Shown piece by piece: positions 691 through 31,017 of a stretch of DNA of 64,000 nucleotides. Both the position numbers and the translations under genes were made by a program. Every line of letters starts with the position of its first letter. Position 1 is the stretch's first letter. Origin of the DNA: Tubulanus polymorphus (taxonomy: Eukaryota > Animalia > Nemertea); contig NC_134031.1 of the NCBI RefSeq assembly GCF_964204645.1, positions 11,720,088 through 11,784,087 of the forward strand, read 5' to 3'. Under the pieces are notes generated by a model that saw nothing but the letters and a program-made list of their open reading frames with translations, had not been told where the DNA came from and made no database searches.

Positions 691-731
691 AATATGATTA
701 AAAATAGATAATTAATTTTTTTGTTAAATAA

Positions 732-1986
732 ATGAGTGGGAGTTATATAAGTCCTTCTAAGATTTCTAGAATATCTAATGCTATTAAAGCAGAAAGATCA
801 CATCATATAATTACTCATAATCCTTCAAATATTAATCCCGATGAAACTTTATATGTTAGAATTCCTCGATTAACACAAAATACTTTTTATGTTCCAAATA
901 GTATTTATTTATCAGCCAATATAAAAGTTACGATAATGATGGTCATGATAATAATTATGTTGTTGATGATCTTAGGAGATATTTGATTAAAAAATTAACT
1001 ATAAAGATTGGTCCAGAAACAGTTTTCTCATTAGATGATTATAATTCATTTATGCATTATAAAGATTTATGGTTTACTAAAGAAAATAGAAATAATATGA
1101 TATTTCAGGGTATTCAATCGGAAAACCATAATAAATTAAGATCAGGAGCTAATGACGCAATAGTAACTCGTGCCACAGATAATTTGATTAAAAAGATTTA
1201 TGGGAGCAAATATAAAATTCCATTAGACTTTGAATTGATAAATAATAATGCACCTTTATATAAATACGCAATTCAAGAAGATATTATATTTGAGATAACA
1301 TTTGCTCTTGTAAATGAAATTGTATTATCTAGCGTTGTTAAAGATATGGGTTATAAATTATCGAATATATGTTTAGAATATGACACAGTAACTAATGAAA
1401 ATATTGCTAGCACAATTCAAAGTCAATACAATCAAGGATTTTCATTATTATATGATTATATTGATAAATTTAAAACTGTAACTATTAATGCAAATGGTGA
1501 AATAATTAATGAGAATATTAACTCCCCTAGAAGATCTATTAAAGGTATATTAATATTTTTTACAATTGCAACATATTCTAATGGCGCAATAAATGTTGAT
1601 AATTATCATAATCCTGAAATATCAAAAGTAGAAATAACTATTGAATGTATAGCAAATAAATTATTTTGTCAAGGAATGAGAATGATAGATCAGTGGCCAG
1701 AAATTAGAAAACATTTTATGAATAAAAAAAAAAATTATCTGAAAATTTTAATATTAATCAAATTGATTATTATACCGGTAATAAATACGCATAATGGTTA
1801 GATTTTAGAACAACTAAAGATAATTTATTACATGGTTCTGGTAAAAAACTACAGAACACTAAAGATGGAATACAATTATTCATGACAAAGAAAAAAGGAA
1901 GCTTAAATTTCAAAATGCACATTTATATTATATCTGACGCGCAATTAAATATTGTAAATTCTCAATTGAATAGTGTTATGCATTAG
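732..1986 (+). pseudogene. Major capsid protein (double jelly-roll, adintovirus-like), frameshifted
   Basis: ORFs 732-986 and 983-1801 plus tail to TAG near 1986; motifs ITHNPSNI..ETLYVRIPRL, IKKLTIKI, YKDLW..FQGI, NICLEYD, RRSIKGIL, NPEI.KVEITIE, ISDAQLNI recognised as animal Maverick/adintovirus MCP. Confidence 0.8.
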
Positions 1987-2018
1987 AATTTTAATTTTAA
2001 TAAAAATTTATATATTAA

Positions 2019-2830
2019 ATGGATGAAGGTAAAGTATATAAACATATTCCATACATTGATAAACATGAAAATAATGATGGCTTATATTATGTAAAACCTT
2101 GTAATATAGCTTTGATATTTGATCCTATTTTCAAAAATTATAAAACTAAACTAATAGAAATCGATAATAATAAAAGTGGAGTTGTTGATAATTTAAGTTA
2201 TGAAATTGATAATAATGTTTTAACTTCTACATCAAATAATGTTTTACCTTCTACGCCTAATAATGAAATAATATTAAATTATAGTGAAAATAGAAATTAT
2301 TGTGGTTACTGTAAAGGCGAGTTTTCAAACGCTCCAACAAATTGGAATAACCATATGAACACAGTTTACATATCAAAAATGTTATAAAACGTGTTGGTAT
2401 AAGAGCATTTATAGAACACCCATTTAGATATGTTACATACAAAGTTTGTTTCAAATAAAAAGTAAATGGTAAAGATTTATATAAAGATTTTTTATCTAAG
2501 GAACCTAGTTAAGGTAAATTAGATTAATCTGATGCTAAAGAAATATTAGGATGAAACATTGTAAATTAAATGTTGGAGTCAAACACTAAGAAAGAGGATA
2601 AGGAAAATATAGTTACTGGAAAGCATATTGATAATGAAGATTATATAGATACAGATTGGACGTAACGTAAAGTAGTTAAAAAAAAATTAATGATGCGGTA
2701 GATAGGTTGAAAAAGGATTATAATGAAGAAACTAATGATGATCCGGTAGATAGGTTGAATAAAATGTTAGAGTCTGATGATGAATTGGAGAATGATGATG
2801 AAAATGATGTTAATTATCTCACATAATATA
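2019..2830 (+). pseudogene. Unknown Maverick accessory ORF with CxxC motif and acidic tail, decayed
   Basis: ORF 2019-2387 (NYCGYCKGEF) starts in a TAAATG context; broken acidic coding-like sequence follows. Confidence 0.4.
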
Positions 2831-3167
2831 TTGGTTGAAAATTGTATAAAATAATAGTTAATAAAAAAGGGGTTTTAAGTATTTATGCATCTAATACGTA
2901 TTTAATGCGTATCTAATACGCGCCTAATACGTATCTAATATGTATTATTTGAAAATACCTTAAATTATAATTTTTTTAAAAATTTATATTGAAACCTCAG
3001 TAATAATAAATAACCTTTATTATTTTCAAACTTATTCATATATTAGTTGAAAAAATAAAAATAAATTGGTTGAAAATTGTATAAATAATATTTATTTTAA
3101 AAAGGGGGGTATTAAGGTATCTAATACATATCTAATACGTATCTAATACATAAATACTTAAAATACC
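2830..3167. repeat. Duplicated blocks with ~11-bp TATCTAATACG-type repeats downstream of the copy A ATPase
   Basis: Repeats at about 2885-2945 and 3115-3150; block TTGGTTGAAAATTGTATAAA...AAAGGGGG occurs twice; 2990-3045 duplicates the ATPase 3' end (3198-3253). Confidence 0.75.
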
Positions 3168-3729
3168 TTATTTTGTAAATTTATATTCATAGGGAAATTG
3201 AAGCCTCAGTAATAATTTTGAACCTTTATTACTTTTTAATTTTTTCATATATTCATCATGTAATTCAGTAGGTATAATTTGATTTACTTCCAATGATTGT
3301 TGCATAGATTTTCTATCTTTATTGTAGAATAAAACTAAAAATCTTATATTCTCCCTAAAATCTTTAACAATTGAATTATACTTTTGATTTAAAACCCATG
3401 TTGTTATCCCAAAATGTCTCCCGGAGGAAGCTAAATAGCATAACTCACTTTCTCTAACTTTTGAATCATGTAAATTTGCACAATCATCCACAATAAATAA
3501 TGTATTTGATCCTTCATAAATATCAATTGCTATTTTTATACAATTATCTAAATTTTCTTTCACTGTTTTAGGGTCTAATATAATAAGTAGGGCAGAATAA
3601 TATTATATTATCAAAATGATTTTTATAAATAGTTTCTAACAAATCTAATACAAAATGTGTTTCACCACAGTTGGTTACCTCAGTAACTAACATATTATGC
3701 GGTTCAAATATAAATAAATCTTTATTAAT
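3168..3729 (-). pseudogene. FtsK/A32-like packaging ATPase (copy A)
   Basis: Walker B LFIVDDC and SGRHFGITTWVLNQKY; Walker A mutated (EVTNCGET versus GVTNCGKT in copy B); start codon mutated. Confidence 0.88.
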
Positions 3730-4406
3730 TTATTCTTTTAATTTTACGAGATAAAATCCATTCATTGAACTTGTCATCGTACCCTTTATATTTCACCAGA
3801 CAATACTTTTTTCCTTTAAGAGTTTTTGTTTTCAATACTTTTTCTATTTTGTATTCTATTTCATCTGGATTTGGTACAAGTGATAATTCTTGTTCGTAGA
3901 AATAACCTAATATTTCTTCATCTTTTAAATCTTCTTATTTATAAACAAATGGTTTAGTAAGTATTATCTTTTTAATCTTAAATATTTCTGCAGTGAAATT
4001 TGGAGTATAACCTTTATAAAATGTTTTTCGACATTTAGATATTCTTACATGTTATCCTTTTTTAAATTCAGGTTCTCCAAAATCATGTGTAACAAACGCA
4101 CCATATAAATTATTCCAAACTATTTCTGAATTATCTTCTTTTCTAGCTTGTATAGGTTTCATATTTATAGAACTATGTTTAGAATTATTATAACCTTTCA
4201 CTAAATCATCTAACACATCGATATATTTACATGTTTCATTAGCAGTAAAATATTTCCACATTCTAGTTTTCAATGTTTTATTAAACCTTTCTATAATAGA
4301 TGCTTTTTTATCTGAGTGTGTTGAAAAATACTCTACATCGTTATCAGATAACAGTTTTTTGATGGGTTTCGTCGTCAGACGAACCCATCTATGGCATCGT
4401 CGTCAT

Positions 4407-4441
<35 letters not shown>

Positions 4442-6054
4442 GATGTTTCTTTATGACACGATTTAAGCTGTTTGTGTGGACCGACAATTCTGTAATTTCA
4501 CACAGGTATTCTCTACTTGATGTAGATGGTGCAGCTTGGTTTATATTTGATTCCGATGGTTATAAGTGCTCTAATTTGGTTAAAAGATAATTAACGTTAC
4601 TCGCTAGTTCAAGCCGCTGTATAGCGCGTTGCTACGACGACGCTCGATCAACATACTGGTACTCGCTGTGTAATACTGAACACGTATATACCTGTAGATA
4701 TTGATCGTACTAGCACCGGTTTCAGATAGCGCGCGCGCTGATCGGTCTTAACACTTCTCGGAACTGCTGTGCTAAATGCTGAGAGGCCGAATCTATGCGC
4801 AATCATTTATTGGGCTCGTCACATTTGATAGTGAATGGATAAATAACCGGTGTCAATGACGGTCGCTACTCCCCATCAGTATAACTCATCAGTATAAGAA
4901 ATAATTCTTTCGAGTTTTTTTTTCAATCCCCGAAGTTGTTGTTACTATGTTGACCTCGCCGTTTTATTTAAGCTTACTGATGATTCTTCTAGTATTTTTC
5001 AGGGTCACAAGACATGACGAAGTCGCAAAGTTTTGTACAAATTTCACGAAACAAACAATTATTTAGGCGGCACCTGATCTATTGATTAATTATGATAAAT
5101 AATGTTTATTTCATTAAAAATTTGTTTTATTCAAACACTACTTTCGTCGCACATAGCGTGATCGGTAGGCCCTACTATTCTACGGTAGGCCATGGACTCT
5201 TTCATGTGGTAGGCCTATTACAAATGATACAATCCGCGTGTCCGTGAATAAGTGACACGTGGTGGGGCGGGTTGTGAGGAGCATCGAAACTAATCCGTCA
5301 CAAATAATAGATAGAAAACAATACCTTAAGAGGTTAACTTTTATTAACATCATTACCAAATCAAAACCTGCACATCCTATCATAAATAGAAATTCTAAGA
5401 ATTTATTTCAAAGAATAATAAATTACGTCTTAATATTGGGATTCGAACTCGTAGCATCGATTCAGGTGCCTTTCCCAAAGCGGGTATCCCGCGGGGAAAA
5501 CCCATTACTATTTATATCGAGAATCGCCTTTTTGACAGCGAGTTCGGTGAATGAAACAGAAACAATTACACAGAAACCCATCATGGGAAGTTTCTTTCTG
5601 GTTAAAATGTTTATTATAAAATTCCCTACCATCATCAAATTGTATCTTACCTGGAATAGCTTCTTTAAATATATTTTTAAAAGCATTTGTTACTTCAATC
5701 TATACCAGTTTTATTTTTCATTGGAATTGACCATGCGTATCTACTGAATATATCTATGACATTTAATATCCAGAAATATCCTTTGTTGTATTCTTCTAAG
5801 TTCTTCATGTCAATTAAATCTGCTTGCCATTGTTGATCGATATATGACACCATTACTTTTCTTGCTAAATAATTCTTATCCATTTTCTTATGAATTTGAT
5901 ATGTTGGTTGATTTTGTAACCATAATTTTAATTCACTATATTTTATATTTTTTTTATCAGATTTAATTTGATCCCATAATTCTGAAACACTAGAATATGA
6001 TACTTCACTCTCTGGGTTGTAATATAAATCTCTTAAATATTGTCCTTTTTTCAT
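3730..6054 (-). pseudogene. Retroviral-like (rve) integrase with C-terminal chromodomain (copy A), split by an insertion at 4361-5603
   Basis: LYYNP, QWQADL, IDIFSRYAW, QFDDGREF, IIERFNKTLKTRMW, YN..KHSSI.MKP, YKIEKVLK; removing 4361-5603 rejoins KHF|KKLL. Confidence 0.9.
4361..5603 (+). mobile_element. Non-autonomous Helentron/HINE (DINE-1-like) element inserted in the Maverick integrase
   Basis: subTIR GATGGGTTTC 4361-4370 and GAAACCCATC 5573-5582; 5' hairpin 4361-4389; (GTCT)n microsatellite 4407-4440; weak 3' stem; inserted after a T-run with no TSD. Confidence 0.8.
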
Positions 6055-6060
6055 CTTATT

Positions 6061-6350
6061 TTAATCCATTAATAATAATTTAGATTTAGTTTCAATGATT
6101 TTATCATTTGATTTATTTTCTGGTATAATAGGTTTATCATCTTCATCATTATTATCATCAGATTTATACTTAGATTTATATATTACACCAGAGAATATAA
6201 TTACTGTGATTAACCCAATTGTAATATATAAGTAATTATTTCTTCCAGTATTAGAAGAATTAGATGGATTATCATTCGAATCAATATCAGATAATTTCTG
6301 TGATTCATTTATATCAGTTAATTTCATTTTCTTAGCTCTTTTTAATTCTG
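6061..6350 (-). pseudogene. Small single-TM Maverick protein (copy A), 5'-truncated
   Basis: TM segment YLYITIGLITVIIFSGVIY; same layout as the ORF starting at 8296. Confidence 0.55.
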
Positions 6351-6618
6351 AAATATATAAATCGGGTCGGTAGATTCGAATTACCTATTGCGTATAGAGG
6401 AAAAAAGACGTCGATTACTTGTGAGATAGTACAGGAAATGTTCCCAATATCCTAAGTCTGAAAGACTCGATAAGACTAAATTTGATCAGAAGAGTAGATA
6501 CTGTATCAAAGGCTGAGCCAATCGTTAATAATAATAAACAACATGTAGATACAGGTAGTAAACGGAGTAGTGTTAAAGATTGTATACTAATAAGTATGGA
6601 ATATTCAATAAATGTCTC

Positions 6619-7119: not shown

Positions 7120-7450
7120 AGTAATTAGGAAATGGCGTTTTCATACCAGAGGTCGAGAGGTCGAGACACCACTCATCACAGCTAGGCTCTAGCGAGAACG
7201 GACGATTGCTCTGTGATACACATATACAGTGAGTGCGCGTAACAACAACTGCGCGTGGATAGATAGATACAGTGAGTCGCCACTGAGAACGGTTATTAAC
7301 GCGTGTGCTATAGTGCAGTGATTGCGTGTCAACTGTGCCCGGATAAATAGATGCTGTGAGGCTTGGGTGAGAACGGTTAATAGCGTGCTTGTTATATACA
7401 AGGGGAAGTAATCCCCACTCATCACTACAAGTAATTTTTTTTCCTTATAA
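7120..7450 (+). repeat. Left terminal (TIR-like) region of copy B
   Basis: AGTAAT start; CCACTCATCAC at 7169-7179 and 7415-7425; three GAGAACGG motifs; ends in ACAAGTAATTTTTT..CCT.ATAAATGGG, shared with 23046-23135 (minus). Confidence 0.65.
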
Positions 7451-7777
7451 ATGGGAGATAGAAAAGCATTCTTAGCAACAATAAATAACAGAATAAAACC
7501 AGCAAAAAAACAATTTGAAATAAAAAAGTTAGTTGATGTTACAAAAGAAATTGAACATAAAATATTGAAATTAGAAAAGATAAAAACTAAATATGGAGAG
7601 AAAGTATCAGCTAATTTAAGCTATTGCGATGTTAGTACATCGCGAGAATTTAAAGTATTTTTACCTGATAAATGGGTTTCATTGAGTACAGAGGAATTAA
7701 AAGATTTAGAAGGATTTAAAATAATCTATTATGGAAAAAATGAAGATGGCCATCATGATTTAGAAATTGTTGATTAA
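7451..7777 (+). CDS. Small conserved Maverick protein, possibly an OB-fold ssDNA-binding protein
   Basis: Intact 108-aa ORF; homologous to 26516-26869 (KKL, KYG.K, FLPD/YLPD, Y.GKNE.GHHD); fold assignment is inference. Confidence 0.6.
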   Translation: MGDRKAFLATINNRIKPAKKQFEIKKLVDVTKEIEHKILKLEKIKTKYGEKVSANLSYCDVSTSREFKVFLPDKWVSLSTEELKDLEGFKIIYYGKNEDGHHDLEIVD

Positions 7778-7939
7778 ATTTAAAAAAAATAAATTAATAA
7801 AAATAATGAATATCTAGAATCCGAAATGACTTATCTGGACAATTTAATTGCTCCGCATAGATAGACAAAAGAAGTGAGATGGTGCCGTACGGCACCCAGA
7901 TGGTGATATTCAATTAATTAAAAAAAATTATTTTTTTGC

Positions 7940-8296
7940 TTTTTTTCTAAAATATTAATCCATTTTTTTTATTATCAATTTTGGAATTTCAGAAGTATTT
8001 TCATTTTTAATAGCAGTTGTTTTAGAATTATTAATATCATGAATTTTATTTGATTTCTTATACCAATTACACCCAATCAAAATGAGTACAATTACAAATC
8101 CAACTGTAAAATATAGTCATTTATCAAATATTCTATTATTAGAAGGAGTAGAAATAACAATATTTTCACCATTTTTATTACTTATTTTTTCTTTTACAGC
8201 TTTTTTATATTCTTGTGATTTAATTCCTAATTGCCGAGACCATTCAATTTGTTTCTGTGATCTCGGTTTTTTCTTCACTTCTTCCACCTTGTTCAT
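7940..8296 (-). pseudogene. Small basic single-TM protein (copy B)
   Basis: MNKVEEVKKKPRSQKQIEWSRQLG...*LYFTVGFVIVLILIG; TAAATG start; internal stop. Confidence 0.55.
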
Positions 8297-8312
8297 TTAT
8301 TATAGAAATATT

Positions 8313-8853
8313 TTAACTTTCAATATTTGAAAATGTTATAACTCCAGTTGATAATAATGTCATAAATCCACCTAATTGAAATGATAAATATCCAATCCAT
8401 TTATTTAATTCGGTCATAACTAAATAATCATTTTTTAAATCAGCATATAATCTATTTTCATCTTGAATTGGCAGCATATAATTACATATTTTACTATAAC
8501 CTTTTACTACATTTTCTGATATCGCATCATTAATTCTAGCTGTTCTCGCGGTTTCATAAATCTTAAATAATCTAATAATTTCATCTGATTTTATTGTATC
8601 CAATTCATTATAAGTTAAATTTTTACCGATAAAATTTTTACATTTTCCAGATGCTATATAATTTCTAATTGATGTTTACAATAAAGAAAATATTCATAAT
8701 TATTATTTGTTGTAACATTATTTAAAGCACCATCATCTGGAATTAATTTGTTTTCTGTTATTCCTAAATCATCTAAATTTATTCCTAATAATCTAAAGTT
8801 TTTTCAATTGGAACATCACCATTTTTAGATTTTATTTTCATTTCACCTACCAT
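8313..8853 (-). pseudogene. Conserved Maverick accessory protein of unknown function
   Basis: TAAATG start at 8853; C-terminal ORF 8313-8603 (LFKIYE...LPI.DEN.L..DL); frameshifts in the 5' half. Confidence 0.55.
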
Positions 8854-8884
8854 TTATATAACAAAAAAATTAGTTGTGATGTTG

Positions 8885-9145
8885 CAACTAGAATTTAACT
8901 AGAATGTAACTAGAATTCAACTAGATTAACAAGCTAGTTGAAATATTGTTTTTTTTATATATTTTTTGTTAAATCTGGTTGATTTTTGTTCCAACTACCA
9001 ATAACTAGAATTCAACTAGAATGTAACTAAAAATATACTAGATTAACAAGCTAGTTAAAATATTGTTGAATTTTATTTGATTTTTGTTTCAAATACCAAT
9101 AACTAGAATTCAACTAGAATGTAACTAAATATGTAATAGATTAAC
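8885..9145. repeat. ~10-bp AACTAGAATN tandem repeats in three blocks downstream of the copy B ATPase
   Basis: AACTAGAATTT/AACTAGAATGT/AACTAGAATTC/AACTAGATTAACAAG blocks at about 8886, 9003 and 9101. Confidence 0.85.
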
Positions 9146-9159
9146 AAACCTGTTGAATT

Positions 9160-9767
9160 TAAATAAATTCATTTTTAAATGGGTGTTGTAATCTAAATAG
9201 TAATTTTGTTCTTTTAATATTTTTCAATTTATCCATATATTCATTATGTAAATCATGTGGAATAATATCGTTTTCCTCAAGTGCATTTTTCATCGATTTT
9301 CTATCTTTATTGTAGAATAAAACTAGAAATCTAATGTTTTCTCTAAAGTCTTTAACAATGGAATTATATTTTTGATTTTAAACCCATGTTGTTATCCCGA
9401 AATGTCTCCCAGAGAAAGCCAGATAACATAACTCACTTTCTCTCACTTTTGAATCATGTAAATTTGCGCAATCATCTATAATGAATAATGTATTTGATCC
9501 TTTATAAATATCTATTGCTATTTTAATACAATTATCTAAATTTTCTTTTACTGTTTTAGGATCTAATATAATAAATTTATTATTTCTAGTAATATTTCTA
9601 TCATAAGTTTGAATAAATTCATATGTTGCACAAAATAATACTATATTATCAAAATAGTTTTTATAAACAGTTTCTAATAAATTTAATATAAAATAAGTTT
9701 TTCCACAATTTGTTACGCCAGAAATTAACATATTATGAGGCTCAAATATAAATGATTCCTTATTCAT
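9160..9767 (-). pseudogene. FtsK/A32-like packaging ATPase (copy B)
   Basis: Walker A ISGVTNCGKT, Walker B LFIIDDC, FSGRHFGITTWV; premature stop at 9378, homology to copy A continues to about 9190. Confidence 0.9.
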
Positions 9768-10892
9768 TTATATATTTTTAATTTTACTTGATAATATCCA
9801 GTCATTGAATTTATCTGGCTACCAACCCATTTTACTAAAGAATATTTTTTTCTTTTAATAGTTTTTGTTTTTAATACTTTTTCAATTTTATATTCTTGTT
9901 CTAGATTTTCAGTAGTTAAACTCAATTCTTCTTCGTAAAAGTAGCCATCAACTTCTTCACCATCTAAATCTTCTAATTTATAGACATATGGTTTTGTTGT
10001 TATAACCTTTTTTATTTTATATATTTCTCTAGTAAAATTTCGATCGTATCCTTTATCAAATATCTTTTTATACTTAGAAATTCTAACATTTTGACCAACT
10101 TTAAATTTAGGTTCGCCAAAATCATCTACAAGAAATGCTCCATATAAATTATTCCAAACAATTTCAGAATTTTCAGGTTTTCTAGCATCAATAGGTTTCA
10201 TTCCAATAGAAGAATGATAAGAATTATTATATCCTTCTATCAATTTTGGCAAAACATCAATCCATTTAAAAGTTATTTGCTGTAAGATATTTCCACATTC
10301 TTGTTCTTAATGTTCTATTAAATCGTTCAACAACTGCCGCTTGTTTATCCGATTTTGTTGAAAAATATTTAATATTATGATTGTCTAAGAGTTCATGAAC
10401 AAGTGAATTATCAAACTCTTTTCCATCATCAAATTGTATTTTTTCTGGTTTTAGTTTATCATCCGAAAGAAATTTTCTTAAAACATTTGATGTTTGTACA
10501 GCATCTTTTCTATAAATTGGGAAACTCCATACATAACGACTAAAAATATCAATTATATTCAATATCCATCAATAATCATCATTATATTTCTTAACATTTT
10601 TCATATCAATTAAATCTCTTTGCCACTGTTGATCTACATAACTTACCATAGTTTTACGAGTTTTATATTTTCTAACAATTTTTTTATGTGTTGTATATGT
10701 TGGTTGTTCTAACGTAAATTCATTTATATCTATATATTTAACTAAATTTTGTGGGATTATCTTATCTAATTTATCTTCTTTTACTTGACGCCATATATTT
10801 TTGGTAGAAGAATAAGCAACCGAACTCTCAGGGTTGTAATATAAATTTCTTAAATATTGTTCTTTAGTATTAGGAGTTTTTTTACCACCCAT
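9764..10892 (-). pseudogene. rve integrase with chromodomain (copy B), three fragments
   Basis: ORFs 10569-10892, 10266-10562 and 9764-10252; D-D-E in QWQRDL, IQFDDGKEF, VVERFNRT; chromo-like YKIEKVLK...LVKWVG. Confidence 0.92.
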
Positions 10893-10922
10893 TTATATAT
10901 CCTTAATTTTAACTTTATATTT

Positions 10923-11950
10923 CTAATATTGAATACTATCTAATTGTGAATTTACAATATTTAATTGTGCGTCAGATATAATATAAATGTGCATTTTAAA
11001 ATTTAAGCTTCCTTTTTTCTTTTTCATGAATAATTATATTCCATCTTTAGTGTTCTGTAGTTATTTTCTAGAACCATGTAATGAATTATTTATCCTCTGT
11101 TGTTCTAAAATCTAACCATAATGCATATTTATTGCCGGTATAATAATCAATTTGATTAATATTACAATTTTCAGATGATTTTACTTTTTCATTCATAAAA
11201 TGTTTTCTAATTTCTGGCCATTGATCAATCATTCTCATTCCTTGACAAAATATTTTATTTGCTATTCCTTCGATAGTTATTTCTACTTTTGTTATTTCAG
11301 GATTATAATAATTATCAACCTTTATTGCGCCATTAGAATATGTTGCAATGGTAAAAAATATTAATATACCTTTAATAGATCTTCTTGGGAAGTTAATATT
11401 CTCATTAATTATTTCATCATTTGCATTAATAGTTACAGTTTTAAATTTATCAATATAATCATATAATAATGAAAATACTTGATTGTATCGAGTTTGAATT
11501 GTGCTAGCAATATTTTCATTAGTTACTGTATTATATTCTAAACATATATTCGATAATTTATATCCCATATCTTTAACAACGCTAGATAATACAATTTCAT
11601 TTACAGGAGCAAATGTTATCTCAAATATAATATCTTCTTGAATTACATATTTATATAAAGGTGCATTATTATTTATCAATTCAAAGTCTAATGGAATTTT
11701 ACATTTGCTTCCATAAATCTTTTTAATCAAATTATCTGCGGCACGAGTTACTATTGCGTCATTAGCTCCTGATCTTAATTTATTATGGTTTTCCGATTGA
11801 ATGCCTTGAAATATCATATTATTTCTATTTTCTTTAGTTAACCATAAATCTTTATAATGCATAAATAAATTATAATCATCTAATGAGAAAATTGTTTCTG
11901 GACCAATCTTTATAGTTAATTTTTTAATCAAATATCTCCCAACATTGTTG
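10923..11950 (-). pseudogene. Major capsid protein (copy B), N-terminus deleted
   Basis: ORF 11086-11931 near-identical to 983-1801; joined at about 11950 to the upstream coiled-coil gene; premature stop at 11086. Confidence 0.85.
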
Positions 11951-13073
11951 TAAATAACATAGTTACAGCTGTTAGAATTGAAAGAATTGTTATTCCTTCA
12001 AACTTAAATAATAACTTTATTCTATCTTTTAATGATATTTCAGAATTTGGTTTAATCAACAAATCTTTAAAAATAACTTTTAATCTATTAATATTATAAT
12101 CATATGATTTTAATAATAATTTAATTTCTTCTTTCCGTACTTCTAAATTATCTTTTAAATTATTAATTTCTTTTTCTAATCGTAATTCTTTTTGCCTATA
12201 TTCTATTTCATCAATTACTTGATGATCTAAATCAGACTTTAATTGTTCTATTTCTTTATTTTTATCAGTTAATTCTTTTTCTAAAAATCTGATTCTAAAA
12301 TCTCTTATACTTTTATTATGTGCAATTTTATCAGCTTCATTTCTTATACTAATAATTTCTCTAATTGCTTCATCAGAAAATATATTTAAATCTTCTAATT
12401 GTTGATCTGTTGCATCAATTAATCCATTCGGTAAAAGTTTTTCAATTGGAACTTTATTTGATTTAAGTTTACTAGTTTTGGAAGTTATATTCTGTTCAGA
12501 AGTTGTTTTTGTTTCTGATTTCTTTTTGATTATTTCAAATAATTCATTAATTCTTTATTTAAATACGTCTATATCATTACCAGTTAATTCTTGTTTTATA
12601 ACATCAGTTATTACATTACTATTACTAATTCTTTTAATTCTATCTGGATCTAAATCACTCAAAGTTGATTTTGTTAATATCTTATTTTTATTATTTTTAT
12701 AAGTGATATCAATATAATAATCACCTTTCAAATGATAATAACATTTACCATTATCAAAAAATTTTAATTGATCTGCTAAAAGTCCAACGTCTTCATCATT
12801 TATGTTAAGTTTAGAATTTTCAATTATACGTTCTAATTTAGGTATTTTGTTTAAATTATCTAAATCTTGTTTTACTAAATCTGGGTCTAAATTTTCAGGA
12901 TTTAATTGTGATTCTGCATTTTTAATATAATCAGGCATATTTAAATTATTATTATATTCTGGCTCATTACCGTCATTAAAACTTGTTTCACTAAAATCAG
13001 GTTGTTGTTCATCAGTTATGCCAGGTTCATCAAAATTATCCATTCCAATATCTTCTCCACCTTCTACATCCAT
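11951..13073 (-). pseudogene. Acidic N-terminal/coiled-coil protein (copy B), C-terminus deleted
   Basis: ORF 12555-13073 (..FSETSFNDG..) continues past a stop into sequence matching 1-405. Confidence 0.65.
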
Positions 13074-13089
13074 TTATATAATAAAAAAA

Positions 13090-14376: not shown

Positions 14377-14392
14377 TTATATAATTAAAAAA

Positions 14393-14842: not shown

Positions 14843-14857
14843 TTATTTAGTAAAATA

Positions 14858-15443: not shown

Positions 15444-15459
15444 TTATATAATGAAGAAA

Positions 15460-19510: not shown

Positions 19511-22500
19511 ATCAAAATATAATATTTCAATATGCTTTTCCCCAAAAAGTGGTCGTAAAACATTATAATAAAAATCATACATTAATAATTTTGATACTTC
19601 TAAAACAGTTGAACCAATGAATATAGGTTTATTAAATTTCATTGACGTTCTTTTTAATTTAACTGCTTTTAAATAATCTTCAAATCTTTTATTTCCTAAA
19701 TGTCTAGGACTTGATTGTGAATGTCTTAATCTTTCAGAATTATTTACTAATTCAATATCATTTCTATTTCTAATATTTTCGCATGTTTTACCATAAAAAC
19801 TATTATTCATTAATTTGAAGAAATCTTTTTCAAAATCTGTTTTTGATATGGTTCTCTGTTGAGTATTGAAATCTATATATTTTTCTAACCACTTCGATTG
19901 ATTAAATTCAATATATCTATGTACTTTCTTTAATTTCATTCCTTGTTTTAGATAAAATGTTAACATTCTATAATGAACAATATAATTGTATTTATTATTT
20001 TGAGTAAGTATTAACTTCTCTGTAAAAACATGATCTTTCGGTTTTATTTTCTTTTGGTATTCACTTAAATAACTATCATCTACAGTTAAATGTTCTGGGC
20101 AATAAGCTAAGTTTCTTGTTTTAAACTTTATATTTTCAGGATATTCTAAATCAACTACAAAGAAATAACCAATTGGTGCTTCATCTTTTAAACTCGCAAT
20201 TGCGCTTTCCCAATCAGTTTTATCATCATTTTCAACTTCTGTTAATATAAAATCTTTATATGGTTGAGGTTGCATCATTGCCCAACCATATACATTATTG
20301 GCGTCAATATATAATAATTTATATTCATCATTTGCTTTAAAATATCTATCTCCCATAACACCACTAATTCCACCTCTAATTGATTTTTCAAATAATAAAA
20401 CCATGTCTGGTTCTTTTAATAAATCTAATTCTACATTTGTATATTTTAAACCACATTGCCAGGTTAAACCAGGACTAGAGTAGCAATAACAAGGATCAAC
20501 ATTAAAATGATTCAAATTAACTTCTCTAAATTTTTCAAATATGTCAGCCAATATCATAACATCTGATTTTAAATATAAATCAACTAATTCACCATGATTT
20601 TTCATCTTAAAATGGTTCCAAATATTTAATGTTCTATTAAACACTTCGTCTTTCACATACTCCTCTTTTAATTGATCATAAAATTGATCTTTTAATAATT
20701 CTGTTACATTAAAATCATTGTGTGTTTTATAAAATGAATAAGGAATTGCGCCTTTATATCTCAATAATTTAAAATCTTGTTCATTTGGATAATAATATCG
20801 AGTCATAACAAAATCATTATCAACTAAACTTTTTGATAAATTATCTAATGAACTTGCTAGAAATCTATAAGAATCTAAAAATCTAATGCAACCAAATTGA
20901 AATGAAATATAATTTTCAGATGTTTTAGCTAATAGTTTAAAATCATATTTTCTTACATTTACACCATTCATAGCATTATATTCTTCTATTTCTTGATTAA
21001 TTGCGCCCAATTTTCCCGATAATTGTTTTATTAATAGATGGGTATCATAGCCTGATAAATTATGAAATAATATTGGTACGAAATTAACTTTCTTAGCTTG
21101 TAAATTGCAATCTTCATGAGCAGCTCCACGATATTTTGAATTTAAATGATCATGATCTCTAACTTTTTTATCAAATGAATAAAAACGTTTTTCACAATAA
21201 CAACAATGAGTTGCATAATTAAAATCAATTTCATCTTCTTTTGTCATAACTATTCTTTTATTTTTGTTTAATAATTTTGCAAAATCACTTTCTAATTCAA
21301 TCATTTTGTCACAAAAATCATTAACTACATTTTCACCTCTAAAAGAAATATATCGACTTTCATATAATTCAGGATAATTTGATTTTATATAAATTCCATA
21401 AGCAGCAGCTCTTTGATGAACTTTTTTAATTGTATTTATAATTGGCGGGTCTTGTATTGTGTCTTCATTTAATTCATTTCCTTTATCCATTGATTTTAAT
21501 AATTGCTTTTTGTTATATATTTCTTTTCTATCTTGATCAGTTAATTCTTTATTCAACGATTCAAAATCCCCATACAAATGGAACAATATTCTTAAATTTA
21601 TGATTAGTAAATTTCAATTCATAATCTTTTTCTGTTGGCATTATTAATTTACAAAAATCTTTATTATCACATAATTCTTTATGTTTTAATAATGTTTTCT
21701 TAGTCATAAATTTAGATAAACATTTTCTACATAGATAAATTTTATGATGATGATCACTTTCTGTTCTAAAGAATAAATCAATTTGTTTTAACCACATATA
21801 ATGTTCATTTTCATCTTTTTTGTAATATAACAAATCTATAGCATTTTCATCATCGTAATATTCTGTTAAATATAAAGTTTCCAATGTATAATCTTTAATA
21901 TTTTCACCTTTTGTCTTTGGTAATTGCATTAATTCAAATACATTTATTTTTAAATTATTAACTTTTTCTATTTTAGAAATCATTTTTATAGTTACTGGAT
22001 ATTGATCAATTTTATATAATGTTTCATATTTCCGATAATCTGTTATTCTACAAACATTTTCCTGTGTTGGATGTAAGCAACTAATAATTGACCCTAGAAA
22101 ACATTTATTATCTTCATTTTGAATACTTATTACTGCTTTTGTTGTAAATGGTAATTTAATATAAGATGATGCTTTAATATCCTTTTCTGTTGTAAAGTTT
22201 GAATCATTTTTAAACATTTTATTACTTTTTGATGTTTTATTTCTTTTTGTATTATAAACATTTAAATCTAAATATATCATTTCATTCAATGTTAAGCCAG
22301 AACCCTCAAAATATCTTTCTTCAATATGACGTTTAAATTCATTAAATATTTTTTCTAACTTCTCTTTTATTTGTGTTTTTGAAATTATTTCTTCAGAGTG
22401 TGTTTGAATATTATAATCCATTTTTTTTCTTCTGACTTTATAAAACTTACTTTCCCAGAGATACTAATTTTTGGATATTCAACATCTGTTATCAAATCTA

Positions 22501-23135
22501 GTATTTTTTCTATTATTTCATTAAATGTACTATAATCTTCTATTGTTGTACCTTTAAAAAATCTAAATATAATAGCTGCAGGACCAATTTTACTATGTAA
22601 TGTTTCTAAAATTTCAATTGTATCTTTTATTTCTAGTGAATCAATATAATTTCTAACATTTTCCATGTAAGGTTTATTTGAAATGGATTTAGTTTTTGAA
22701 GTTGGTTTTTTTACTTTTTGAGGTTTATCATCAAAATAATCTTTTCCTAAAACATTATTACTCAAATTTTGATGGTGTTTTTGTGATTCGAGATGTCTAT
22801 TATAATTCCTTTTTACTATAAATTCATTACAAACTTCACATTTTATTTCATCCACATTCATATTTTCTAATCTTCCTTTTCTTTCATTGGAATTTTCTGG
22901 AGTTTCAAAATCTATTACATTTTTTATATGATTTGTAGTTTTTTCATGTCGTGTTTTATTAGATGTATCGACGTATTTTTTACAATATGTGCAATAATAT
23001 TGATTTTTATTAACATTATTGTTTTCTGGCTGGTGTTCATTCTTCCCCATTTATTAGGAAAAAAAATTACTTGTGGTGATGAGTGGTGTCTCGTCCTCGG
23101 GTCCTCTGATCTGAAGGCCCACTTTTCCAATTACT

Positions 23136-24138
23136 GATATAACTAATAAATTAGGACCTATACAATAATTTAATCTTACATGAGATTTATCTAAATAATT
23201 TTGGTACCTAACTATATATTCTCGATCTATTTTTATCATTGTGAATTGAATCTTCAAATAAAACTTTAAATTGTTTCTGTGTATCAAATGATGTATTTAA
23301 ATTTCCAATTATTGGGGATCTTGTTCCAACTTGCAATCCTAGAATACAAATCAAATAAGTTCTAATTGATTGATTTATTCTTTGTATACCTGATTTAGTA
23401 AAACCTTCACTATTATCTAAAATAAAATAAACCAAACCATTATTGTTTTCTTGTTTTAAATGATCATAACATTTCGGTAATTTATTGAAATCTAATGTTT
23501 CTAAATCCTTAGTTTCTATTTTACCATAACCTAATTTATTATTATAGATATTATAAAAACTATTAGATGGTATGGGAAGCAATCTTTTTAGGGCAAGGAA
23601 GTGATCTTATTGTTCCAAGTTTTGTTCTAAAATCAGAATTATTTATATCTATATTAAATTCATTACAAATCTTATAAAACTTTGATAAATTAATATTATT
23701 ATCTAATTCTTTGAAATATCTAGATCCTGGTAAAGGACACTCTAATTCATTTGATTCATCACTCTAATTATTATGGAATCTAAAAAAACTTTGAATTAAT
23801 TGATATTTAGAATTATTCAAATAATCATTCCAACTTATTCCACAACCTGTTGTTGCACAATAAACTGCAAAATTTAATTGGTTCTGCCAATACTTCATAT
23901 CGGATTTTAATGACTATTGTTTTTCATCTTTCAATTTTTTACAATTAATTAAATATACATGAAATATATTTTCCATCTTTGCATAAAAATCATTAGTTTC
24001 AGTAACATAAATATCTAAATTAATTGATGAATCTAAAACTTCATTTCTATATGAAATATCTTTATTAAAATCTATTGCAGGAATATTATATTTAATTGAT
24101 TTATTATATTGGAAAGCTTTTGGAAAACTATCTGTCAT
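23136..24138 (-). pseudogene. Paralogue of 13090-14376, cut at 23135/23136 by the copy B terminus
   Basis: FPKAFQYNKS, GIQRINQSIRTYLICILG, YLDKSHVRLNYCIGPNLLVIS then an abrupt switch to AGTAATT. Confidence 0.8.
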
Positions 24139-24154
24139 TTTTATAATAAAAAAA

Positions 24155-25727
24155 TTAATAATTAATTAATTCTTTTAATAATCTATCTAGTTCTTCAATT
24201 TTTATATTACCATTTAAACTTATAATATAATCTAGTGTATTTTTTAATTCATTAATTTCTTTTATATTAGATTTTATTTTTTCTTTATTACTTTTTATAT
24301 TCAATTTTGAACTTATTCCGGTTAAAACACTTGAACTTAATCCTAACACACCAATTGATATAGCTAAAGGTGTTTATGGTGAGAATATTGCTAAAAATGT
24401 TATTACAGAACTAATTGTAACTGAACCACTAATAATAAAACAATATATAATTTTCCTTTTTAAATATTTTTTCTTTTAAACTTTTAAATCATTTTCAAAT
24501 TTTAATATTTGTTTTTCCAAATATAATTTTAATTTAGTTTTATTTATATCATGAGGAATAATATTAACACCATCAACTTTATCATCCATTTATTTAGCAA
24601 AAAAATTACTAATTTGTAAATTTATAAGCAACAAATATAACAATAACTGTTCCACCTAAAATCCAAATTATTTCATATTTCTTCTGTTCTTTACTTGGGG
24701 TATAATAATCTGATAATTTAGGTTTGTATAGATGTAATTTTCACGATTTTTTACTGCATTATATAAACTCATAGCTTCATCGACTGATTGAAAATCTGTA
24801 TGTGTAATTTTCTGATTATATAATTCTTTATTAATGTAATCCATGGCCCAGGTCCACAGTTCTGAGTTACGATTTGACTCTGGGTTAAAACATTGAAAAT
24901 GAACTAACTTAAACTCAGAGTTAACTCTAACTCACGACTGTGGAACTGGGTCCATATAGTTTTACCTCTTTTCTCTATATTCTTCTGCAGCTTTATTATA
25001 TTTCTCTAATGCTAAATTATGTCTTCTTTGTTCTCCTTATGAATTATTTTTATCAATATGCTTAAACAAATATCCGCCACCAGTAAATGCTAAAGCGTTA
25101 ACAATTGCCGACCCTATAATAGTTATAATTGCAGAAGCCATTTATTTAGTAAAAAAATTATGCATTTATAAAGGAGGATTATATTTTTGTTTTTCTAAAT
25201 AATCAATCGTTAAATTAGATAAAGTAACTGCTAATGTTAATTTTAAAATATCATTGATATCAAATCTATCAACATTAACACTTCCCACTTTAAATAATTG
25301 TTTTAATACCATTTAATAACCAACAGTTCCAGCTGACAGTTGCTCCATTATATAAACCAGTTATTATCCACTTATTATCACTCATTTATTAATCAAAAAA
25401 ATCACCTTCTTCAAAATATTTAGTTATCTTATTTATGATTATTTCAACATTTATTTCATTACTACTTTTATGATTGTCATATATTTTAGATAATATATTT
25501 TTAATATCATCGATAATTCCATCTTCATTTAATTCATAATATTCTAAAGGTGTTTTGATTAAATCAATTACTTTTTCTATATTATAATTTCCTTTATTAA
25601 TCATGGATGCATTGTTAAATGATTTACCATTAATATCAGTAATTACATCATTTAGTTTAATTCTCATTTCTTTACCATGTTTAAAATCAAACCCAAAACA
25701 TATACTCGGTCCAACAGTTATATTCAT
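24155..25727 (-). pseudogene. Four small accessory genes of copy C (starts at 24589, 25141, 25385, 25727)
   Basis: Each homologous to genes in 14393-15443; three have TAAATG starts. Confidence 0.7.
24845..24952. mobile_element. 108-bp MITE (PIF/Harbinger-like) in a copy C gene
   Basis: TIR GGCCCAGGTCCACAGT / ACTGTGGAACTGGGTC; CAT duplicated on both sides; empty site ATCCATATAG in copy B (~14651). Confidence 0.85.
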
Positions 25728-25742
25728 TTGTATATCAAAAAA

Positions 25743-26501
25743 TTACTCTTTACATCTTATAACTAATTCATAAATTACAGGAAAGTTATTCAAATCAATT
25801 AGATATCCATTATAATTTCTAATTTCTAATCTAAAATTATTAAATTGAGGGATGCATGGTTTGAAATCACACTCAGCTAAACTATAATTTATTTGCGTTC
25901 CAAATTCTTTAACATTCTTCAATTGTAAAATATTCAATTAACCAGAATTACAAATTGTATCTTTAGTTGCTTCAAATGTTTTTGTAGGATCAATTAAATT
26001 GCAATAAATATAAAAGTGTGTAAAAGGCATTAAGTTTGGTGTAGCATCAGCATTACGTATCCTTACATCCGGGGTTATTCCTAAAATTTTAGCTAAAGGT
26101 TTTTTAACTAGAAATTGATGCTGATCTTCATTGCCTACTTTTATTCTTACTTTATCAAAGCTATCACTTTTAATAAGTCTTAATCCAAATCCAGCAGATG
26201 CACCCATTTTTGAGCGTGCTCTTTTATCAATTTCTTGAGCTAATGTTTCTAAATTATATAATCCTGGTTTAAGATAAAGATGAAACCATCTATTCTTATT
26301 TCTGTCATGAATTAAAAAGACTCTATGTTCAATAGATTTATCCGATATATTGTAAAATGAGTTACATAAACTAATATTTACTCATTTTAAATCTACGCAA
26401 TTTTTAAATTCTCTATCTAATTGTACCAGTAAATTATGTGATTTATAATTTTTTAGTCTTCTTGAATCAACAAATATTCTATAATCTTTTAATTCTACCA
26501 T
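25743..26501 (-). pseudogene. Minor capsid protein (penton), copy C
   Basis: Paralogue of 15460-16165 with in-frame stops. Confidence 0.75.
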
Positions 26502-26515
26502 TTATTTTACATATT

Positions 26516-26869
26516 TTATTCGAAATCTATATCATGGTGCCCTTTTTCATTCTTACCTTTATATATGAAATAGAAATCTCCAGAACATAATTCTTCTAAA
26601 TCTTCACTAGATAATCTATGAAATCTATCTGGTAAATATGTTCTGAATTTATATTTATTTCCTTTTAATCCTTCTTATTCAAAGTGGATAACTAATTTAT
26701 CTCCATATTTGTTAATAACTGTATCAATATTTGTAATTAGATATTTCTTATGAATTGTTAATTCTGTTAACTTCTTAAATTTATAATCTGCTGATATAGC
26801 ATTTGTGATATCTTTTATTCTAGCTAGGAATGATTTGTTGTTCTCACTGTGTATTTGTTTACTCTCCAT
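26516..26869 (-). pseudogene. Paralogue of the 7451-7777 protein (possible OB-fold)
   Basis: ..FKKLTEL..KYGDKL..*..YLPDRF..YKGKNEKGHHDIDFE; one internal stop at 26675. Confidence 0.65.
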
Positions 26870-26899
26870 TTTAATAACAATTTTTTAATTAAAATTTGA

Positions 26900-29800
26900 T
26901 TAACATGCTAGAATTCTTTTAATAATCTCATTCTCTTTTGTTTCTTCTCTTTTAAACTTTAAGTATTCATCTAAATTACAACCATAAGCAACTGTGTGTA
27001 TACCATCATCTAAAATATATCTTTTATCGTCAAATGGGTTTAGACTTATCTTCTCTATCTCTTCAAAAAACATTTCATGATCTTCTGATCTTAAATATTT
27101 CATCTTATGTTTTCTAACTTCTTCATTGAATATACAATTGATGTAATCTTTGAAATGAATATTCTTTTCAACAGCGCTTTTGGTAATTCCTTTTAACTTT
27201 TTAGATTCATGAGTTTTGGTTTCATATGAATCTATTTTAGATCGAATTCCAATGAACTCTCATTCTCAGTCATTTCTTCACCACCTAATTCATCTTAGAA
27301 TTTACCGGGTCGCTTTTTATTTTCAGTATTATATAATTCATGAGCTTTTGGATAATTACTGAAATCAAAATGGTGTTTTAATGTTTTTAAATCATCTGTT
27401 ATGTTATTAGTTTTTATCTTAAATATGTAACTGTCAGTATCAAAATATAAGATTTCTATATGCTTTTCTCCAAAATGAGGTTGTAATACATTATAATAGA
27501 ATTCATACATTAATAATTTTGATATTTCTAAAACTGATGCTCCAACATAAATTGGTTTATTGAATTTCATAGAAGTTCTTCTCATTTTAACTGCAGCTAA
27601 ATTTTTATCAAATATTCTGTTACCTATGAACTTAGGATATGTTTGTAAATGCCTTATCCTTTTACCATTACTAACTAACTCAATATCATTTCTATTTCTA
27701 ATATTTTCACAAGTCTTACCATAGAATGCATTATTCATTAACTTGAAGAAATCTTTCTCAAAATCAGTTTTAGCTTTAGTTCTCTGTTGAAATCTATATA
27801 TTTTTCTAACCATTTAGATTGACTGAATGAAATATATCTATGTACTTTTTTTAGAACCATTCCTTGATTCAAATAAAACTTCAACATTCTATAATGTACT
27901 ACATAATTATATTTATCTTCCTGAGTTACCATTAACTTTTCAGTATGAATATGATTTTCGGGTTTAATTCTTTTTTGGTAATTTGATAATTCTTCATGTG
28001 TTACAGTTTTATGTTCGGGGCAGTATGCTGCATTCCTTGATTTAAATTTAATGTTTTCAGGATATTCCAAATCTACAACAAAGAAGTAACCAGTATCTGA
28101 ATCATCTGCAATATCTAGAATTCTTTTCTTCCAATCAAATTTATCATTATTTTCATGTTGTAAAACTTCAGTTATTTCAAATACTCCATAAGGTTGTGGT
28201 TCCATCATTGCCAAACCATATAGATTATTTGCGTCTATATATAATAATTTATATCCAGGGTGGGTTATCATTTACATTGAAATATATATCGCCTAATACA
28301 CCCGAAACTCCTCCTCTTATAGATTTTTCCAATAATAATAATTGATTTATATTTGTTAACAAATCCATTTTTATATCTGTAAATTTCAAACCACAGTCCC
28401 AAGTTAAACCTGGACTAGAATAACAATGACATGGATCAATATTGAAATATTTTAGATTTACATCTCTAAACCATTCAAATATATCAGTTAATAATAATAC
28501 ATCTGATTTTAGATATAAATCTACTAATTGTCCATGATTTTTCATTCCAAAATGATTCCAAATATTCAATGTTCTATGGTAGACTTCATCTTTAACATAT
28601 TCATTTTTTAATTCATCATAGAATTGTTCTTTTAATAATTCAGTTATATTGAAATCATTATGTGATTTATAAAATGAATATGGAATTGCTCCTTTATATC
28701 TCATTAATTGAAAATCATCATTATTTGGATAGTGTTGCTTTAATATGTTTAATTCATCATCAACTAATGATTTTGATAAATTATCTAATGAACTACTTAA
28801 AAATCTATATGAATCTATAAATCTTAGACACCCAAATTGGAAAGATATATAGTTCTCAGATGTTTTAGCTTACATTTTAAATTTATATGTTGGTATTTAA
28901 TCTTTGATCTATTTGGATTTAATCTTTCTATTTCATTATTGATTTCTTCTATTTTATGGCATAGCTGTTTGATAAATAAATGAGCATCATACCCTGATAA
29001 ATTATGAAATATAACTGGAACAAAATTGATTTTCTTAGCTTGTAAGTTACAAATCTCATTCGCCGCACCTCTAAACTTTCCATTCAAATGATCATGGTCT
29101 CTAACTTTTTTATCTTTTAGATTAAATGTCTTTTCACAATAAAAACATTTATCAGCAAACTCAAATTCTTCTTTATCTTCGTCTGTCATAATTATTTCTA
29201 TATTTGTATCTAATAGTTTACTAAATTTTATTTCATATTCAATTAATAAGTCACAAAAATGATTTATAACATTTTCATTTCTATAATTATAATATTCACT
29301 TGAAATTAGTTCTGGATAATCAGATTTTATATATAATCCAAAAGCTGTAGCTGATTGATGAATCTTTTTAATAGTATTTGTTTCTGGTGGTTCTTCTGAA
29401 AAATCATTTTCATAGTTTAGTTTCTTTCTTTTATAATATATTTCTTTTCTATCGTGATCAGTTAATTCTTTATTGAGTGACTCGAAGTCACCATATATTA
29501 CAAATGGTACTTTGTTTTTGTAATCATATTTTTAAAATTCTAATATTTTATCCTTTTCATTTGGTAAAAATAATTAACAATAATCATGATTTTCACATAA
29601 TTGTTTATGATTTGATAATGCAGTTTCAGTTCTAAATTTATGTAAACATTTTCTACATAGATATATTTTATTATCAAAATCATTTTCTGATTTAAAAAAT
29701 AAATCGATTTGTTTAATCCACATATAATGATTTTCATAATATAGTATATCTATAACATCATTTGAATCATAATTTTGATAGGTATAAAGTTTCTAATGTA

Positions 29801-30947
29801 TAATGTTTTATATTGTTACCTTTCGTATTTGGTAATTTGATTAAATCGAATACATTTATTTTTAGATTATTATCCCTTTCAATTTTTGGAATATTTTTAA
29901 TTCTAACTGGATAATTATCTATCTTATAATTATTTTCAAATTGTTTATAATTTGTTAATCTAAAACTATGTGTTATATCTTCTGTTGGATGTAAGCAACT
30001 TATAACTGTCCATAGAAAACATTTATCATCAGAATTGTGTACATTTATTACAGCATTAGTTGTAAATGGTTATTTGATATAACTTGATCCATTTATAATA
30101 TCATCATTATAATATGATAAATTATTTTCATCAATTGGTTTTGATTTAGTTAACTTATTATATTTTGTGTTATAAACATGTAAAGTCATAAATATTATTT
30201 CATCAAATATTAACCCAGATCCTTCAAAATATTTCTCTTCTATTTTAGTTTTTACTTCATTATAACATTTATCTAATTTTTCATCTATATGTTGTTTCAT
30301 CTATATATTGTTGAAATAATATGTTGTGAATGGGAATTTATATTATATATTGGTTTATCTTCAGATTTTATAAACTTAACTTTAACTGATATGCTAATTT
30401 TAGGGTATTCAATATTTTCACAATATTTTTCATATTTTCTAAATGTTTTTTTATTTTCTTCTAATGTTTTTCCTTTATGAAATTTAAACTCAATAGCAGC
30501 TGGACCAACATCACTTTTAAATGCTTCAGTTATCTCTACTTCTTTTTTATTATCTAATGAATTGATATAATTTCTAATATCTTCCATGTATGGTCTTTTA
30601 CTGTTTAATTCATTTTTTATTCTTTTAATTGTCTTCTGTTTCTTATCATTATCTTTATCAAAATAATCTTCACCTATAATATCATCATTATTAATATTTC
30701 TAATATGACTTATAGATTTTAAATGTTCTTTATAATATCTTTTATCACTGAATGATTGATTACATGTATCACATTTATATATTTCTTTTTCATTCTTCAA
30801 TTCATCTTATTTAGTTTCTAATTTATCATCTTTATATTCTAATTTCAATTTATTTTCTAAATGTGTTCTAGTTTTATTATGTCTTGCTTTTTGAGATTTA
30901 TCTATATTAATTTTACATGTCGGACAGTAGTACTTATTTGCTTCCAT
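26900..30947 (-). pseudogene. polB: Protein-primed family B DNA polymerase (copy C), intein-free allele
   Basis: Many frameshifted fragments; YIDANNLYG, KLMNNAFYGK, uninterrupted ILYFDTDSY (27427-27453). Confidence 0.95.
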
Positions 30948-31017
30948 TTTAATATCAAATTTTTTATTGAAATTGATTTTAGAAGTTATTCATATTCATA
31001 TATATGAATATTATAAG

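Follow-up and report, generated by a model that had tools for sequence, protein, structure and literature searches.

A poxvirus late-promoter-like signal at the start codons of Polintons from the nemertean Tubulanus polymorphus and from metagenomic relatives

Two questions about animal Polintons are open: by what route their genes are transcribed, and whether some of them depend on a helper virus as the virophages of protists do. Here, we approach them through a stretch of 64,000 nucleotides of the T. polymorphus genome (contig NC_134031.1, positions 11,720,088 to 11,784,087; hereafter, the window, always meaning the whole stretch), the first 31,000 positions of which contain, according to self-alignment and tblastn, 3 decayed copies (A, B, and C) of one Polinton group. 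A previous inspection of the letters (hereafter, the sequence-only reading) had suggested that most start codons in this region carry a poxvirus-type late promoter, a T-run followed at a short distance by TAAATG, and that the genes might be transcribed by the polymerase of a pox-like helper virus. We find that the start signal is real, strong, and common to independent relatives of the element, and we weigh what might read it.

Each of the 18 starts listed as TAAATG by the sequence-only reading is an ATG directly preceded by TAA, with 4 on the plus strand (732, 2019, 7451, and 16233) and 14 on the minus strand. Together with 6 further starts placed by homology (6054, 16165, 24138, 25727, 26869, and 30947), they make up a set of 24, so that TAAATG occurs at 18/24 starts versus 45/697 other coding-strand ATGs (Fisher p 7e-16). 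The enrichment expected over an AT-matched null was also found, the motif being present at 8/215 other ATGs whose upstream sequence is at least 85% AT; when each gene family contributed one start, with the representative chosen by the analyst, it was present at 14/16. A purine follows at +4 in 24/24 starts. Seven additional starts had been described as near variants: this holds for 5 of the 6 placed starts, which lie in decayed copies and are one base off, but not for the integrase start of copy A (6054; site 6052..6073, minus strand), a true exception without TAAATG that is shared by the relative L003, and the seventh start could not be identified. TAAATG as the test motif had been set by the sequence-only reading beforehand, whereas the upstream patterns described below were defined after viewing the data.

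Around the hexamer, the signal follows a 22-base layout: it opens with TAA (-19..-17), continues with a 7-nt block consisting largely of T or of A (-16..-10) and three positions in which G or C is frequent, and closes with WWATAA, the ATG, and a purine; about half of the starts read AATAAATG. The statement that most starts are preceded by TAATTTTT holds for approximately 60% of them (a T-run at 15/24), but 9/24 have an A-run at the same place. At least 5 Ts in -16..-10 are found at 13/18 exact TAAATG starts versus 9/74 TAAATG sites that are not starts (p 1e-6), and T at -13 is found at 14/18 versus 25/74, with a gap of 6 nt between the T-run and TAAAT. In the accessible parts of the sources, from which all literature is cited here, late promoters of vaccinia and mpox viruses have TAAAT and a following G that overlap the start codon; 10 nt upstream, a stretch of Ts includes a conserved one (PMC11980589), and the vaccinia spacer measures 5-7 bp (PMC5294985); intermediate promoters combine TAAA with an A-preferring upstream block (PMC11980589), and TAAATG starts occur in a fish poxvirus (PMC4542343). 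The asserted likeness to late promoters is borne out, in that both the placement of the T and the gap fit the vaccinia consensus, and the Polinton signal shares with vaccinia and mpox viruses TAAAT plus G over the start, a T-rich block, a spacer of 5-7 nt, and the division into T- and A-preferring upstream classes. It differs in standing on a Polinton without a recognizable RNA polymerase, in an additional TAA at -19..-17, frequently serving as a stop codon as well, and in its presence also at polymerase and integrase genes; its promoter role here is putative.

By its gene set and polymerase, the element groups with Polintons, and it is not assigned to the lavidaviruses. Copy B (7120..23135), delimited by inverted arms and loose ends of reads, spans 16 kb and has both ends, with many genes broken and the start of the capsid gene deleted; it encodes pPolB (PF03175, E 1e-17; the intact relative P0121 is ~80% identical), an A32-like packaging ATPase (PF04665, E 1e-8, over the cut-off), an integrase, and a presumed capsid protein. 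Copy A (1..6360) is partial and interrupted by other DNA, with the presumed capsid gene, integrase, and ATPase recognized by self-alignment and tblastn, whereas copy C (23136..30970, minus strand) is a partial member of a sister subfamily with 72-87% DNA identity to copy B and a pPolB without the intein described below. The integrase match to PF00665 (E 0.002) is below the cut-off and involves a fragment; tblastn matches to integrase-like open reading frames (ORFs) of many pPolB loci are strong. The presumed capsid protein shows 38-41% identity to a 421-residue ORF of locus L018, which we take to be a capsid protein. No cysteine protease match was obtained among the 32 window ORFs scanned, in copies that carry deletions. 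The gene at 16233 encodes a zinc finger (PF06220), and the one at 7451, whose family gives a weak OB-fold/SSB match (E 0.03), likely encodes a single-strand DNA binding protein (SSB). With animal Polintons or Mavericks (adintoviruses; PMC8502044, PMC11131425), the element shares pPolB, the rve integrase, the A32 ATPase, presumed capsid genes, terminal inverted repeats, and many copies; it differs in its strict TAAATG, which most other pPolB loci sampled lack, in the intein at the YxD|TDS site, and in the protease not found in the window.

The 15 starts with a T-run comprise the presumed virion block and two starts in terminal repeats. The latter, with exact TAAATG as at all sites below unless stated otherwise, belong to the likely SSB gene of copy B (7432..7453, plus strand) and to its pPolB (23048..23069, minus strand), the first gene after the terminus. 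The former include the presumed major capsid gene of copy A, identified by homology (713..734, plus strand), and, on the minus strand of copy B, a homologue of a 211-residue protein in L003 (8851..8872), an ORF of unknown function (13071..13092), a conserved protein of ~440 residues (14374..14395), a hydrophobic conserved Polinton protein with homology from residue 1 (14840..14861), a small ORF for which the T-run overlaps the end of the upstream gene (15085..15106), a 105-residue ORF without a homologue outside the window (15441..15462), and a putative minor capsid gene (16163..16186, a one-base variant), a divergent start without an upstream stop. On the minus strand of copy C, the class consists of the homologues of 14376 (24136..24157, a one-base variant), 14842 (25139..25160), 15087 (25383..25404), and 15443 (25725..25746, a one-base variant), and of an ORF of ~150 residues (24587..24608). 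The A-run class (9 starts) unites integrase, ATPase, zinc-finger, SSB-like, and copy C pPolB genes, among others. On the minus strand of copy B, its sites precede the A32-like ATPase (9765..9786), the integrase (10890..10911), and a small membrane-type ORF (8294..8315); on the plus strand, the zinc-finger gene (16214..16235), the other divergent start and likewise without an upstream stop, and, outside copy B, a 122-residue ORF without a homologue, the start of which at 2019 is placed by ORF length only (2000..2021); and on the minus strand of copy C, the homologue of 16165 (26499..26520), the SSB-like gene (26867..26888, a one-base variant), and pPolB (30945..30966, a one-base variant; homology from residue 1 of the L002 protein). 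The ~440-residue Polinton protein (window 13100-14376, minus strand; homologue P0183) has 998 relatives and a C-terminal hydrophobic helix and folds with high confidence (pLDDT 87.5); it gave no match in Pfam, PDB, or BFVD.

The signal extends beyond this genome. In 4 close metagenomic relatives chosen by polymerase similarity (L001, L002, L003, and L006), TAAATG is present at 10/12 mechanically called starts, one of the misses being an internal ATG of a cut contig, and orthologues mostly retain their T-run or A-run class. Among 96 pPolB loci, the L029 clade (36-39% polymerase identity, 31-35% GC) has TAAATG at 9/11 starts and L082 has the strict form at 5/14, both having been singled out after the counts were known. 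The remaining 85 loci have it at 8/344 starts, in line with the enrichment over other Maverick families that the sequence-only reading anticipated; 21 of these 85, with at most 30% GC, have it at 2/51. The 3 positive groups stand apart on the pPolB tree, with looser forms between them, the tree having been built with FastTree only and loci with fewer than 330 aligned residues left out. Signal and class have been kept although DNA divergence between copies B and C is 15-28% and the polymerases of the relatives diverge by ~30%. Scans of IMG/VR for relatives by capsid or polymerase found none. L082, a contig filed in a bacterial metagenome-assembled genome, belongs to an unrelated pPolB clade; it holds an almost complete Polinton in which 10/14 starts read TAA(A)ATG and the upstream blocks are A-rich. 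In L002, L003, and L006, a free-standing gene of the endonuclease VII/HNH type, with the same start signal, lies 3' of pPolB.

What, then, might read such a signal? We lean, if only slightly, towards a leaderless promoter at which a large DNA virus infecting the same cell would engage its late RNA polymerase; the element would then live as a virophage-like parasite. Once excised, or on arrival in a cell, it would be transcribed during infection by the large virus, the post-replicative polymerase of which would recognize the W-run and initiate within TAAAT; initiation in the AAA with polymerase slippage would then produce a poly(A) leader that replaces the poor T at -3. T-run starts would act as late promoters and A-run starts as intermediate ones, and the element would be silent without the helper. 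We infer these transcription steps from the form of the signal. The pPolB and the SSB would copy the linear genome, and the capsid and ATPase would package the product, as for virophages (PMC6428243). In keeping with such dependence, ORF scans of the element, in which copies are incomplete, gave no RNA polymerase match, and Pfam, PHROG, Atlas, PDB, and fold searches of its unknown ORFs gave no match to a borrowed transcription gene. Two further features favor this reading: in copy B, the pPolB start near the terminus lacks a TATA-like box 5' of its signal, and several intergenic gaps, of 15-17 nt, leave no room outside coding DNA for a promoter and a leader. Slippage at such an initiator yields non-templated A leaders in vaccinia virus and in yeast linear plasmids (PMC6211774). 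Like the Polinton, the yeast plasmids pGKL1/2 are pPolB elements; their TAAAN initiator induces slippage, so that transcripts acquire 5' poly(A) leaders. In contrast, pGKL2 supplies an RNA polymerase and a capping enzyme itself and relies on an early-type upstream element, none of which was found here (PMC6211774).

Virophages share late promoters with their helpers, and the comparison with Sputnik and mavirus extends to a small integrating dsDNA virus with a late promoter motif in common with a large virus; Sputnik and mavirus are, however, viruses of protists, with mimivirid helpers and other motifs (PMC6428243). Closer to poxviruses, Polinton-like viruses found in entomopoxvirus occlusion bodies have been proposed to be poxvirus parasites (Barth et al. 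2024, PMC11296320). Those elements are ~12 kb long and lack the rve integrase (PMC11296320), whereas the present one has both pPolB and rve integrase and is linked to poxviruses solely through the form of its promoter. There is precedent for inferring an unseen helper from promoter form, in a protist case (10.64898/2026.07.28.741278) and in a pacmanvirus transpoviron (PMC11788076). Among the papers listed by a literature search, mainly open-access main texts, we found no report of TAAATG or poxvirus-type promoters in Polintons; the word promoter is absent from the accessible parts of Barth et al. (PMC11296320) and of PMC8502044, PMC11161782, PMC12220804, 10.64898/2026.06.19.733378, and 10.1101/2024.03.23.586382.

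A promoter is not the sole reading to be weighed. The layout could be a by-product of compact, AT-rich design, whereby a stop codon, a 3'-end signal (the T-run or AATAAA), and the next start are packed into ~16 nt in an A-rich translation context. The TAA at -19..-17 is indeed the upstream stop at 8296, 13073, 14376, 15443, and 24138 as well as in L002, L003, and L082, giving intergenic gaps of 15-17 nt; the AATAAATG form of roughly half the starts, a single convergent 3' end of copy B where TAA plus a T-run is likewise seen, and the depletion of T7 runs inside ORFs (1 versus 12 expected) would fit as well. AT-rich Polintons without the motif share this depletion, and the poly(A)-signal test (AATAAA in ORFs, 137 versus 132 expected) does not discriminate because these Polintons behave alike (115 versus 99). 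Against this account, the TAA of TAAATG itself is an upstream stop at one start only, in L044; the signal is present at genes without an upstream neighbor (7451, 23050, 16165, 16233, and 8853, and both genes of L001); and the convergent ends in L001 and at 17562 lack a T-run. Pure stop-start coupling, an account that the sequence-only reading had itself raised, is ruled out as the full explanation by the signal at first genes and at the divergent pair 16165/16233, and so is pure AT-richness, given that equally AT-rich Polintons are without the signal (the 2/51 above) whereas those of 35% GC carry it. We consider the by-product account improbable. Even less probable, in our assessment, is a relic, whether of a former partnership with a helper or of an initiator that ancestral Polintons and nucleocytoplasmic large DNA viruses had in common, that in the present host has lost its tie to any helper. 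The 3 separate places of the motif on the pPolB tree with looser forms between them, the entry of the intein into pPolB before the divergence of several Polinton groups, and the decay of the window copies would be compatible with it, but the non-coding signal and its classes have been kept across the divergence of copies B and C and of the relatives, and therefore selection appears to have acted until the recent spread of the family (reads at 95-99% identity).

Alternatively, the signal could be a compact promoter for host RNA polymerase II (Pol II), perhaps with an element-encoded or trans-acting factor and with no need for a helper, which we regard as unlikely but deserving serious attention. 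A TATA-like TTTATAA is present in the L029 clade (about -24..-17), several positive lineages encode zinc-finger genes, and, the copies being incomplete, the window may lack the gene for such a factor. Conversely, no TBP, TFIIB, or VLTF match was obtained in any ORF scanned, the ~440-residue protein is without a fold match, and the 7451 family is SSB-like. The TATAAA/AATAAA hexamer touches the ATG, where a TATA box would be too close by established Pol II spacing, and T at -3 would remain in a templated leader. Several observations also weigh against the late promoter of a helper virus. The left-end gene (7451) has a TATATA 58 nt before its start, and polintoviruses of corals are expressed in ordinary coral material (PMC11131425), which would suit Pol II. 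ORF searches of the window found no poxvirus-derived gene. The split into classes has exceptions, with pPolB of copy B in the T-run class and 26501 in the A-run class. Finally, other Polintons show a less strict TAA(A)nATG (34/344 starts; 7/12 in L017/L018/L039), so that strict TAAATG may be the form in which a general A-rich start context has become fixed in this lineage.

If a helper virus does supply the polymerase, its identity is a separate matter. The proposal of a pox-like polymerase stands insofar as the signal fits the poxvirus late form; poxviruses are not singled out, however, as iridovirus-like viruses favor the same initiator half. An IMG/VR scan with the T-class pattern retrieved 12 contigs, among them 2 giant-virus bins and ~3 that are large-eukaryotic-virus-like, the rest being phage-like; a scan with the long A-class pattern retrieved 0. 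The two bins, G001 and G002 (L103, L106, L109-L117), are iridovirus-like, with VLTF3 present and capsid proteins closest to 6OJN/8HIF (G001, E 5e-123), which we take to be an iridovirus capsid. Two findings tell against the pox label. TAAATG is present at 12/36 (G001) and 8/16 (G002) sampled starts over a background of 3-4%, and therefore the hexamer alone does not point to poxviruses. As to the intein described below, those of its viral relatives that could be placed belong to non-poxvirus polymerases, two of which, when compared with PDB entries, match Pol delta rather than poxvirus enzymes. Short-pattern matches number 43 (G001) and 26 (G002) versus 4 and 7 for the reversed control, but the full motif is rare (2 sites and 1 site, respectively), so that the geometry still fits poxviruses better. 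Thus, the bins resemble the Polinton in their enrichment of WWATAAATG starts and, in G001, in a homologous intein at the same site of PolB, and differ in a looser motif, in a G001 intein that is not the closest, and in the lack of a link to this host. G001 as the helper is ruled out by the rarity of the full motif and by its intein not being the nearest. In its accessible part, PMC5294985 describes no general iridovirus late motif of the TAAATG type. On the geometry, we tentatively name a pox-like helper, while conceding that this is rather doubtful; an iridovirus-like helper would be the next candidate, and a less likely one.

The polymerase carries another trace of large viruses. An intein with a LAGLIDADG endonuclease (18014..19510, minus strand) occupies the YxD|TDS site of pPolB in copy B, where it is broken and contains a secondary insertion of ~436 bp (window 18220-18655); it is absent from copy C and from L001/L002/L006. 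Among its 29 matches, the best three are other pPolBs, followed by RNA-primed polymerases including that of mimivirus, and pPolB inteins, including four other records, form one clade (support 99) among giant-virus-type polymerase inteins including that of mimivirus. In a genomic read run, most of the intein is covered about as deeply as the adjoining gene sequence, and therefore most copies of the subfamily appear to carry it. Judging by these relationships, the intein is a sign of old contact with large DNA viruses, not of a present helper, and it represents a second trace of such contact, independent of the start signal. Intein invasions of pPolB are mentioned only in general terms in the accessible part of PMC11161782, and no description of this pPolB intein was found among the papers listed by a literature search.

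Both ends of copy B are marked by terminal inverted repeats (arms 7120-7179/23076-23135 and 7415-7455/23046-23086). At the left end (7120..7455, plus strand), arms 7120-7179 and 7415-7455 flank a GC-richer stretch, and the inner arm contains the promoter-like signal; in the right terminal repeat (23046..23135, minus strand), the signal lies within the repeat and the pPolB ATG is 85 nt from the terminus. In the read run, 223 loose-end reads exit the element at 23135 with an agreement of 0.37, that is, into many different flanks, which identifies 23135 as a true terminus of a multi-copy family; depth is mostly 200-350 across 5.5 kb of the element, and many element reads are at 95-99% identity. 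The six bases to the left and right of copy B differ, so that no 6-bp target-site duplication was found; the locus being a rearranged cluster, this tells about copy B more than about the family. The GC-richer stretch (7180-7414), with internal repeats and the TATATA mentioned above, is, as reads suggest, a normal part of the left end of the family, and it is possible that it serves as a host-polymerase promoter or an origin.

Positions 1-31,000 have 22-28% GC apart from inserts, and the rest of the window has 31-39%. A secondary insertion of ~1.2 kb interrupts the integrase of copy A (window 4400-5600), a 150-bp palindrome is located at the end of copy C (window 31018-31169), and a 2.1-kb element with 700-bp inverted arms follows (window 32623-34736). 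The flank of 33-39% GC contains transposon-like ORFs (39190-42117, minus strand; 55171-57185 and 58377-59206, plus strand), one of which has 975 residues and a weak OTU match; one ORF fragment of the flank is presumably reverse-transcriptase-like. TAAATG was found at 0/4 starts of the transposon-like ORFs of this flank.

Should the helper-virus reading hold, a parasite of large DNA viruses would be present in many copies in some animal genomes, possibly as a heritable defense, and the motif would point to helper viruses not yet isolated. Taken furthest, and held by us as a tentative possibility, the argument would be that several lineages of ordinary-looking animal Polintons are endogenous poxvirus virophages, with late- and intermediate-type promoters on all genes, that remain silent in the germ line until poxvirus infection. 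Aquatic invertebrates would then be marked as hosts of undiscovered poxviruses, and the context of the start codon would reveal the helper of a Polinton.

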